The position numbers and the translations under genes were made by a program. Source: Escherichia coli (GTDB lineage Bacteria > Pseudomonadota > Gammaproteobacteria > Enterobacterales > Enterobacteriaceae). From it: a DNA stretch of 64,000 nt. Numbering within the stretch: the stretch's first letter is position 1; each line of letters starts with the position of its first letter. A model generated the notes under the pieces. The model worked only from the letters and a program-made list of their open reading frames with translations. It ran no database searches and was not told where the DNA came from. The stretch is taken from assembly GCF_003334815.1 (NCBI RefSeq), contig NZ_QOWO01000005.1; one strand, given 5' to 3'. This document shows, in pieces, positions 11,930 through 40,026 of the stretch.

Positions 11930-11980
11930 GATTTGCCCTGTTGTAATAAATAGGTTGCGATCATTAATGCGACGTCATTA

Positions 11981-12023
11981 TGCGTCAGATTTATGACAGA
12001 TTTATGACAGATTTATGAAAAGC
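11981..12023 (-). promoter_or_regulatory. Tandem Pho boxes of the phoBR promoter
   Basis: Minus strand reads ttcataaatCTGTCATAaatCTGTCATAaatCTGacgca; matches the PhoB consensus CTGTCATA(A/T)A(T/A)CTGTCA. Confidence 0.8.
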
Positions 12024-12129
12024 TCGTCGCACATATCTTCAGGTTATTGATTTCCGTGGCGCAGAAAAAAGCAAATGGCACATCTGTTTGGGTATAATCG
12101 CGCCCATGCTTTTTCGCCAGGGAACCGTT

Positions 12130-17785: not shown

Positions 17786-17809
17786 GTTATAGTCTCGGTG
17801 CTCATTACT

Positions 17810-18012
17810 TATTGCCGGATGCGGCGTGAACGCCTTATCCGCCCTACGCGGTTCTGGCACATTTTGCAGGCCTGATAAGACGCGGCAAGCGTCGCATCAG
17901 GCATCGGAGCACTTATTGCCGGATGCGGCGTGAACGCCTTATCCGGCCTACGGTTCTGGCACCTTTTGTAGGCCTGATAAGACGCGGCAAGCGTCGCATC
18001 AGGCATGATGCG
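17810..18012. repeat. REP/BIME cluster (tandem palindromic units)
   Basis: Two copies of gccggatgcggcgtgaacgccttatccg[g]cctac...aggcctgataagacgcggcaagcgtcgcatcaggca. Confidence 0.85.
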
Positions 18013-38093: not shown

Positions 38094-39068
38094 ATGACAG
38101 ACTTAATCCAACGCCCTCGTCGCCTGCGCAAATCTCCTGCGCTGCGCGCTATGTTTGAAGAGACAACACTTAGCCTTAACGACCTGGTGTTGCCGATCTT
38201 TGTTGAAGAAGAAATTGACGACTACAAAGCCGTTGAAGCCATGCCAGGCGTGATGCGCATTCCAGAGAAACATCTGGCACGCGAAATTGAACGCATCGCC
38301 AACGCCGGTATTCGTTCCGTGATGACTTTTGGCATCTCTCACCATACCGATGAAACCGGCAGCGATGCCTGGCGGGAAGATGGACTGGTGGCGCGTATGT
38401 CGCGCATCTGCAAGCAGACCGTGCCAGAAATGATCGTTATGTCAGACACCTGCTTCTGTGAATACACTTCTCACGGTCACTGCGGTGTGCTGTGCGAGCA
38501 TGGCGTCGACAACGACGCGACTCTGGAAAATTTAGGCAAGCAAGCCGTGGTTGCAGCTGCTGCAGGTGCAGACTTCATCGCCCCTTCCGCCGCGATGGAC
38601 GGCCAGGTACAGGCGATTCGTCAGGCGCTGGACGCTGCGGGATTTAAAGATACGGCGATTATGTCGTATTCGACCAAGTTCGCCTCCTCCTTTTATGGCC
38701 CGTTCCGTGAAGCTGCCGGAAGCGCATTAAAAGGCGACCGCAAAAGCTATCAGATGAACCCAATGAACCGTCGTGAGGCGATTCGTGAATCACTGCTGGA
38801 TGAAGCCCAGGGCGCAGACTGCCTGATGGTTAAACCTGCTGGAGCGTACCTCGACATCGTGCGTGAGCTGCGTGAACGTACTGAATTGCCGATTGGCGCG
38901 TATCAGGTGAGCGGTGAGTATGCGATGATTAAGTTCGCCGCGCTGGCGGGTGCTATAGATGAAGAGAAAGTCGTGCTCGAAAGCTTAGGTTCGATTAAGC
39001 GTGCGGGTGCGGATCTGATTTTCAGCTACTTTGCGCTGGATTTGGCTGAGAAGAAGATTCTGCGTTAA
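38094..39068 (+). CDS. hemB: Porphobilinogen synthase (delta-aminolevulinic acid dehydratase)
   Basis: Recognised start [31 protein letters not shown] within ORF 38061..39068. Confidence 0.95.
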
Positions 39069-39174
39069 TTTTGTTTCCTCTCAGAAAGGGGGAGTTAACC
39101 TGTTGAAAGTACGGTGAACGCCCCCTCACCCTAACCCTCTCCCCAAGGGGGCGAGGGGACCGTCCACTCTCGTA

Positions 39175-40026
39175 TTACCCCGCCCGATAAAACGGTTTAT
39201 CCCCAAGGATCGTCGCCCGATGCATTATCCGTCGCTGTGGCAGGTAATCGGCATTGGCATAGTGCTGGGTCACGCGGTTATCCCAAATCGCAATATCATT
39301 TGGTTGCCAGCGCCAGCGCACCTGAAACTCCGGTTTGGTGATATGGGCAAACAAAAAACTTAACAAGGCTTCGCTCTCTTTCTCGCTCACATCAACAATT
39401 CGCGTAGTAAAGCCTTCATTCACAAACAGCGCCTGTTTACCGCTCACCGGATGCGTTCGCACCACCGGATGTAGCAACGGCGGGTTTTTCGCGACCGCCT
39501 CGCGCCAGCGTTGATGTTCCTCCTCGGTTTTGCGGTATTTGTATTCCGGGAACGATTTACGGAAATCATGCTCCGCACGCAGCCCACTCAGCAGCTGGCG
39601 GAAGGGAACAGAGAGCGCCTCATAGGCCGCAATACCGCTGGTCCAGAGCGTATCACCGCCGGTCGAAGGTAACTCTTTAGCTGCCAGAATCGCCCCTGCG
39701 GGTGGCGTTTCAATAAATGTCACATCGGTATGCCAGTTGTCGTTATCTGGCGGATTATCGTTATGGGTATCCAGCACGATGATCTCGTCAACCCCTTCGG
39801 CATGCGGGTAAACAGGGTGAATATGCAATTCGCCAAAACGCTGGGCCAGCGCGCGTTGCTGCTGCGGCGTAATAGCTTGATCGCGTAGAAACACCACCTG
39901 ATGGCGCAGCACCGCATGGTAAAGCTGTTCAAACTGATTATCGCTTAACGGGCGCGTCAGGTCGGCACCCGAAATTTGTGCGCCGATATACGGCCCCAGC
40001 GGGGTAATGCTCAGACGTTCACTCAT
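39175..40026 (-). CDS. tauD: Taurine dioxygenase (alpha-ketoglutarate-dependent)
   Basis: 283-aa [42 protein letters not shown]. Confidence 0.95.

Follow-up and report, generated by a model that had tools for sequence, protein, structure and literature searches.

Between the convergent genes hemB and tauD of Escherichia coli lies a short GC-rich sequence, and the question raised by this locus is whether that sequence ends the transcripts of both genes or belongs to a repeat dispersed over the genome. An earlier note on this DNA had offered both readings, a bidirectional terminator or a small repeat-family member. We analysed the element within its window, which is the whole stretch of 64,000 nucleotides, and compared it with E. 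coli genomes, published repeat tables and RNA 3'-end data. The GC-rich hairpin is a catalogued copy of the BoxC (PIT/TMECO) dispersed repeat of E. coli, which at this locus would very probably be a passenger of a lineage-specific alternative spacer rather than a dedicated terminator.

The hemB-tauD spacer

In the list of open reading frames, the stop codon of hemB (plus strand) ends at 39068 and the tauD frame (minus strand) ends at 39175. The gene names were taken from the RefSeq annotation of identical K-12 records. The two ends delimit the spacer as follows.

39069..39174, no strand: the whole intergenic spacer between convergent hemB and tauD, 106 bp in this long (K-12-type) allele, from the open reading frames and the RefSeq annotation

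The 45-mer quoted in the earlier note occurs a single time, at 39121-39165, and the GC-rich element with pairing C-rich and G-rich runs that the note placed between the two genes was confirmed. A 1.1-kb query around the site was 100% identical to E. coli K-12 MG1655 and to other K-12 records, and it was found in 5,425 of the 5,426 complete E. coli genomes. The MG1655 (NC_000913.3) equivalents are 388,646 for the end of tauD and 388,753 for the start of hemB, with the repeat between them. The repeat lies 53 nt from the hemB stop and 17 nt from the tauD stop, and the RefSeq K-12 records annotate no feature at its site. Because such sites are unannotated, BoxC elements are repeatedly rediscovered as "possible terminators", and the practical value of the present result is therefore one of annotation.

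Identity of the element

The minus strand of the spacer, read from 39157 to 39122, was compared with the 23 "TMECO" sequences of MG1655 in Table 1 of Holder et al. 2015 (PMC4666352).

39122..39157, minus strand: BoxC / PIT / TMECO core of 36 nt, CCCTCGCCCCCTTGGGGAGAGGGTTAGGGTGAGGGG, type A with one mismatch, identical to entry no. 5 of that table

Every letter agrees with TMECO no. 5, a type A mm element at 388664-388699 of MG1655. We located the 36-mer in NC_000913.3 at exactly 388664-388699, so that the K-12 sequence agrees with the published table. The family consensus, CCCTCNCCC-N3-6-GGGNGAGGG-N3-GGGNGAGGG, was matched as a regular expression by the minus strand at 39123-39157. The TMECO motif is the BoxC repeat, first described in the 1990s, and also the PIT (potential intrastrand triplex) element of Maher and co-workers from 2000 (PMC4666352). 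In an independent survey, BoxC is a known stem-loop repeat family of E. coli with a unit of about 50-56 bp and 22-32 copies (PMC2267715). The family is dispersed, strictly intergenic and GC-rich, and in each element a C block comes first and two G blocks, mirror images of each other, come after it. The hemB-tauD element is already known, as it has been in E. coli repeat lists since the 1990s/2000 and its coordinates are in the 2015 table. The repeat-family part of the earlier note was thus right, and the element has little discovery value since its exact copy was published earlier.

The three blocks of the core were assigned on the minus strand by pairing, folding and a triad check.

39148..39157, minus strand: C block CCCTCGCCCC, pairing with G block 1
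39135..39144, minus strand: G block 1 GGGGAGAGGG, duplex partner of the C block (pairing and folding)
39122..39131, minus strand: G block 2 GGGTGAGGGG, in mirror repeat to G block 1 and a candidate for the third strand in an intrastrand triplex of the purine motif (triad check)

The C block and G block 1 form 9 of 10 Watson-Crick pairs, and the remaining G.A mismatch defines the "mm" subtype. When G block 2 was set against G block 1, 10 of 10 positions gave allowed triads (G*G-C, A*A-T or T*A-T), and the letters of the core are compatible with a purine-motif intrastrand triplex. In vitro, by CD and NMR, the G-rich strand of type A mm oligonucleotides folds into an intrastrand triplex of this motif that is very stable (PMC4666352). 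The same study reports no triplex signal in duplex DNA, and its in vivo DMS footprinting argues against a stable triplex (PMC4666352).

The check by RNA folding that the earlier note had proposed gave a hairpin on both strands. The energy was -16.9 kcal/mol for hemB-sense RNA; for tauD-sense RNA it was -29.4 kcal/mol, with G-U pairing drawing both G blocks into the hairpin. In the tauD sense the flanks lengthen the stem, and the energy of the whole spacer reaches -44.5 kcal/mol; folded as DNA, the flank-extended stem had a z of -2.92. Relative to shuffles, the whole-spacer fold had z values of -0.41 on the plus strand and -1.86 on the minus strand, and the core had values of -1.7 and -2.9, which are unremarkable to moderate. 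Fold energy alone is not clearly beyond chance; it is repetition, as seen in a 22-mer and in the copy number, that settles the non-chance status of the element.

Copy number, flanks and genomic contexts

The genome-wide motif search proposed in the earlier note bore out the repeat. By BLAST, a 61-nt query had a median of 18 places per genome (range 1-34) over all 5,426 E. coli genomes, and only 364 of the 91,741 places were plasmid-borne. The query was built around the 22-mer CCCTCACCCTAACCCTCTCCCC, whose expected count in shuffles of the window is 0.00. For comparison, 12 other K-12 loci were retrieved along with two additional paired loci, and the position was intergenic in all 12 of the former. 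The copies aligned share sequence beyond the 36-nt core, toward the BoxC unit of about 56 bp.

39158..39165, minus strand: family-conserved 5' flank GGACGGTC, from the alignment with K-12 type A copies

Of the 12 other K-12 type A copies aligned, 11 have the 5' flank GAC(G/A)GTC ahead of the core, the exception being one plus-strand copy (L132) with ATCCGTC. The 3' flank is GAAMAG in most of these copies, from which the hemB-tauD copy diverges with GGCGTTCACC. Several K-12 type A copies (L129 and L131, and L133 and L134 on the minus strand) also have in common a longer A-rich upstream stretch, GATGACAAAG..AAAAA..GC.C..GACRGTC, that is absent in the hemB-tauD copy. This pattern suggests that a subset of BoxC copies may have a longer repeat unit.

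The contexts of the K-12 copies were convergent (aaeR/tldD, frlR/yhfS, zntA/tusA, yjdP/phnP and fimH/gntP), tandem (adk-hemH, ycjD-fabI and yihS-yihR) or divergent (fepB/entC). One copy lies within the pst operon, between pstA and pstB. Five K-12 loci are inverted A+B BoxC pairs, and the hemB-tauD copy is solitary.

As an explanation, a GC-rich palindrome that arose by chance at this one locus, or a REP/BIME element, has hardly any probability. The plus-strand z of only -0.41 for the whole spacer and the REP/BIME clusters elsewhere in the window speak for it; against it stand a multi-copy element whose core and flank are conserved and which every E. coli genome contains, a 22-mer with a chance expectation of zero, a repeat finder that kept the element apart from the REP families of the window, and a sequence that fits the BoxC consensus. 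Membership of REP/BIME was rejected directly, as the element did not group with the REP copies at 17.8, 49 and 51 kb and followed the BoxC consensus instead.

Other repeats of the window were recorded as well. The REP/BIME-type palindrome clusters (GCCGGATGCGGCGTGAACGCCTTATCCGGCCTAC...) lie at 17807-18006, 48955-49152 and 51143-51363, are mutually 80-100% identical and occur in both orientations. At 11979-12024, the window has three tandem 11-bp units of TTTATGACAGA, whose reverse complement is the Pho-box half-site CTGTCATAAA; these units map to about 415.8 kb of MG1655, presumably near the phoB promoter.

The TMECO pattern was also scanned against 100,044 species genomes, with at least 120 loci found. 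Among the matches listed, Mitsuaria chitosanitabida had at least about 145, a Methylomirabilota MAG at least 13, an unclassified MAG at least 5 and Ca. Contendobacter at least 3. Inverted pairs were frequent among these matches, and the loops and flanks were lineage-specific, for example GCTTGC and TCTTCGGGCT in Mitsuaria. The blocks are identical across lineages because the search pattern imposes them, and this identity therefore says nothing on common descent. Holder et al. (PMC4666352) report thousands of copies across 262 proteobacterial genomes, with loci unusually variable among strains and very few copies in some lineages.

Two alleles of the spacer

About two thirds of the genomes, 3,601 of 5,426, matched 80% or more of a 306-nt query that had the spacer at its centre, and carry the long allele. 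In the remaining genomes, about one third, the flanks of the query align and the middle of the spacer does not, and these have a 39-bp spacer instead. Examples of the long form were fetched from K-12, O104:H4 and TUM18530, and the 39-bp form was fetched from UM146 (positions 301-339 of L135) and CFSAN018748 (L137). The short form, TGATCATTATGCCGGGTTATCCAACCCGGCATTTCCCCC, is unrelated to the 106-bp form. Between the two alleles, 39070-39174 is unalignable, and nothing is common from the base after the hemB stop to the tauD stop codon. The short allele contains a perfect 10-bp palindromic hairpin (ATGCCGGGTT/AACCCGGCAT) with z values of -5.9 and -5.2, far outside the shuffles. It has no T tract and the consensus terminator scan flagged nothing in it, so that its hairpin was not called a canonical intrinsic terminator either.

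The long allele consists of the BoxC copy with its flanks and a left half next to hemB.

39069..39121, plus strand: left half of the long allele, single-copy and not detectably BoxC-derived, with one place per genome in 3,603 of 5,426 genomes

These counts suggest that the left half travels with the BoxC copy, the two sets of genomes having been counted separately. The left half (CCTCTCAGAAAGGGGGAG...) was also tried as a decayed inverted type B copy, the second copy seen at paired BoxC loci, and this candidate was rejected: aligned locally with four such loci, it reached a score of 14, the same as the mean of the shuffles (p = 0.57).

DETEC-S565 (L136) has an extra 51 bp at the 5' flank of the BoxC copy (between 39157 and 39158), bounded by GAC(T/C)GTCC direct repeats. 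The 236 records in the 80-90% identity band of the 306-nt query may share this 51-bp segment. Two alleles together with a 51-bp variant fit the reported instability of TMECO loci (PMC4666352). In NZ_LR536431.1 (L139), which is labelled E. coli, hemB is 83% identical over its last 100 nt and is followed by a lysophospholipid acyltransferase gene, not by tauD. This record is probably from a divergent Escherichia lineage.

Transcription termination at the locus

A Rho-independent terminator acting in both directions would require the hairpin to stop RNA polymerase arriving from hemB and from tauD. Such a function would suit an element set between convergent genes, with the hemB stop 53 nt and the tauD stop 17 nt away, and it would suit the strong GC-rich hairpins, above all in the tauD sense with the flank-extended stem. 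Against it, neither strand has a T tract past the stem, where the next 12 nt contain only 3 T, and the consensus terminator scan found no site in the spacer. Permissive Rfam searches of 38500-39700 gave only sub-threshold chance hits, the best reaching 17.5 bits (E = 1.3) where the gathering score is 40. Published tests of PIT elements, as far as Holder et al. (PMC4666352) cite them, found neither promoter nor terminator activity. Members of the family are found in all kinds of gene context, one of them inside the pst operon, and one third of E. coli genomes have no such element between hemB and tauD.

For mapped 3' ends, we used the curated Term-seq tables of Adams et al. 2021 (PMC7815308), which cover LB at two densities and M63. 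No curated 3' end was present on either strand in MG1655 388,400-388,899, with tauD silent in the media used, and hemB was absent from all entries of the tables. With coverage of hemB as low as 86 reads per 800 nt, the absent Term-seq peak is weak negative evidence. The only entry near the element was a region of Rho-dependent termination.

39322, plus strand: peak of a Rho-dependent termination region on the hemB strand, antisense to tauD (MG1655 388499, minus strand), from Adams et al. 2021, Supplementary file 2

This region, 388499(-), has a Rho score of 3.8 (p = 2e-9) and is classed as antisense to tauD (PMC7815308). Its downstream/upstream coverage changed from 33/86 without bicyclomycin to 213/146 with bicyclomycin (PMC7815308). 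The peak, at about 39322, is 254 nt beyond the hemB stop and about 165 nt beyond the repeat, at the coarse resolution of a score that compares coverage in 800-nt windows. From these data, at low hemB coverage and in coarse 800-nt windows, we infer that hemB transcription passes the element and is terminated by Rho further downstream.

Thus, of the features of an intrinsic terminator, the GC-rich stem-loop was found, and a T/U tract and, in the curated tables, a Rho-insensitive 3' end were not. The bidirectional terminator of the earlier note is very improbable. As a dedicated function of the element it is not supported, and in the hemB direction, where the read-through is Rho-sensitive downstream, it is largely refuted. 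The BoxC reading instead places the repeat in a spacer through which hemB transcripts would read, to be ended by Rho about 165 nt further on, inside antisense tauD.

A second role in termination was considered for the C-rich strand. In hemB mRNA, the 27-nt run ACGCCCCCUCACCCUAACCCUCUCCCC is C-rich and nearly G-free (18 C and 1 G) and could be a candidate rut site that loads Rho for termination in antisense tauD, the Rho region peaking about 165-200 nt downstream of it. Half of the run, however, is sequestered in the hairpin. In the other case, adk-hemH (Rho region 498060), the element has the opposite, G-rich orientation, and Dar and Sorek (PMC6061677) put rut sites downstream of the stem-loop and not within it. 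We regard this reading as improbable.

RNA 3' ends at other BoxC copies

For 16 of 18 K-12 BoxC loci, the Adams et al. 2021 tables were looked up in 100-nt bins, after the table format had been checked on the sgrS terminator. Ends at the edge of the hairpin were found at 4 of the 16 loci, in a family reported to be without terminator activity. The end at 3,781,065(+), the "primary" end of lldD, is 4 nt past the hairpin of BoxC no. 17, and the end at 164,636(+) is 5 nt past BoxC no. 2. The end at 3,959,467(-) is 4 nt past the Watson-Crick hairpin of BoxC no. 20, downstream of the own terminator of ppiC, and the end at 624,567(-) is 12 nt past BoxC no. 7. A further end, at 624,680(-), is 4 nt before BoxC no. 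8. Eleven further loci had no Term-seq ends in the 100-nt bins searched. The ends at the hairpin edge of four other loci indicate that a BoxC hairpin can shape RNA 3' ends. A second Rho region soon after a BoxC copy, 498060(+), lies 182 nt downstream of BoxC no. 6 (adk-hemH), with the element oppositely oriented.

These ends bear on a reading that is compatible with BoxC identity, in which the hairpin would define and stabilise the mRNA end without terminating transcription. Rho would end hemB transcripts (perhaps also those of tauD) downstream, and 3'-to-5' exonucleases would then halt at the BoxC hairpin. Dar and Sorek 2018 (PMC6061677) described Rho-dependent transcripts that end just past stable stem-loops without U tracts, after exonuclease trimming, with rut sites immediately downstream of the stem-loops. 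The Rho region about 165 nt downstream of the hemB-tauD copy follows this pattern, the Term-seq ends 4-5 nt past no. 17, no. 2 and no. 20 and 12 nt past no. 7 point the same way, and the RNA hairpin of -16.9 kcal/mol is close to those of no. 17 (-18.4) and no. 2 (-19.2). On the other side, no curated 3' end was recorded at the hemB-tauD copy in the three growth conditions, and eleven other BoxC loci were without ends in the bins searched. In addition, the hairpin is free of mismatches in three of the four copies with hairpin-edge ends; the hemB-tauD copy has one mismatch. A protective role of this kind is a possibility that we give a minor share of the probability, and at hemB-tauD the BoxC hairpin would be at most a passive barrier to 3' exonucleases.

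A broader proposal joins this role to the two spacer alleles. The arrival of the BoxC-bearing spacer could have replaced a compact palindromic hairpin, retained at this locus by other E. coli lineages, and thereby changed how hemB mRNA ends in K-12-type strains, through read-through, a Rho stop in antisense tauD and trimming back to the BoxC hairpin, and BoxC hairpins in general could be recurrent determinants of mRNA 3' ends. We think this unlikely as a whole. If it were true, BoxC hairpins, long described as functionless, would recurrently set where mRNAs end. Two spacer alleles at one locus and hairpin-edge ends elsewhere offer a route to testing the effect of BoxC on RNA, which would be a modest advance.

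Comparison with known systems

Like REP/BIME elements, the hemB-tauD element belongs to a class of GC-rich palindromes that are short, lie between genes in many copies and often stand at gene 3' ends. REP hairpins can block 3' exonucleases. The two are unrelated sequence families, however, since BoxC has three blocks with mirror symmetry and is no simple palindrome, and to our knowledge no REP-type Y1 transposase accompanies BoxC.

With intrinsic terminators, the element shares a GC-rich stem-loop past a stop codon, between convergent genes. It differs from them in having no U tract and no mapped 3' end, and the terminator tests of its family were negative as far as Holder et al. cite them. 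The protective 3' stem-loops of Rho-terminated mRNAs (PMC6061677) are likewise stable stem-loops free of a U tract with a Rho region downstream, and other BoxC copies carry 3' ends near the stem. At the hemB-tauD copy no 3' end is recorded, and such a role would be by analogy.

Within the BoxC/PIT/TMECO family itself, the hemB-tauD copy differs from other copies in its 3' flank, which is GGCGTTCACC and not GAAMAG, in being without the A-rich upstream stretch and in being unpaired. It shares with the family the intergenic position, the 5' flank and the variability between strains, and its core is identical to no. 5, with the same order of C block, loop, G block, 3-nt loop TTA and G block.
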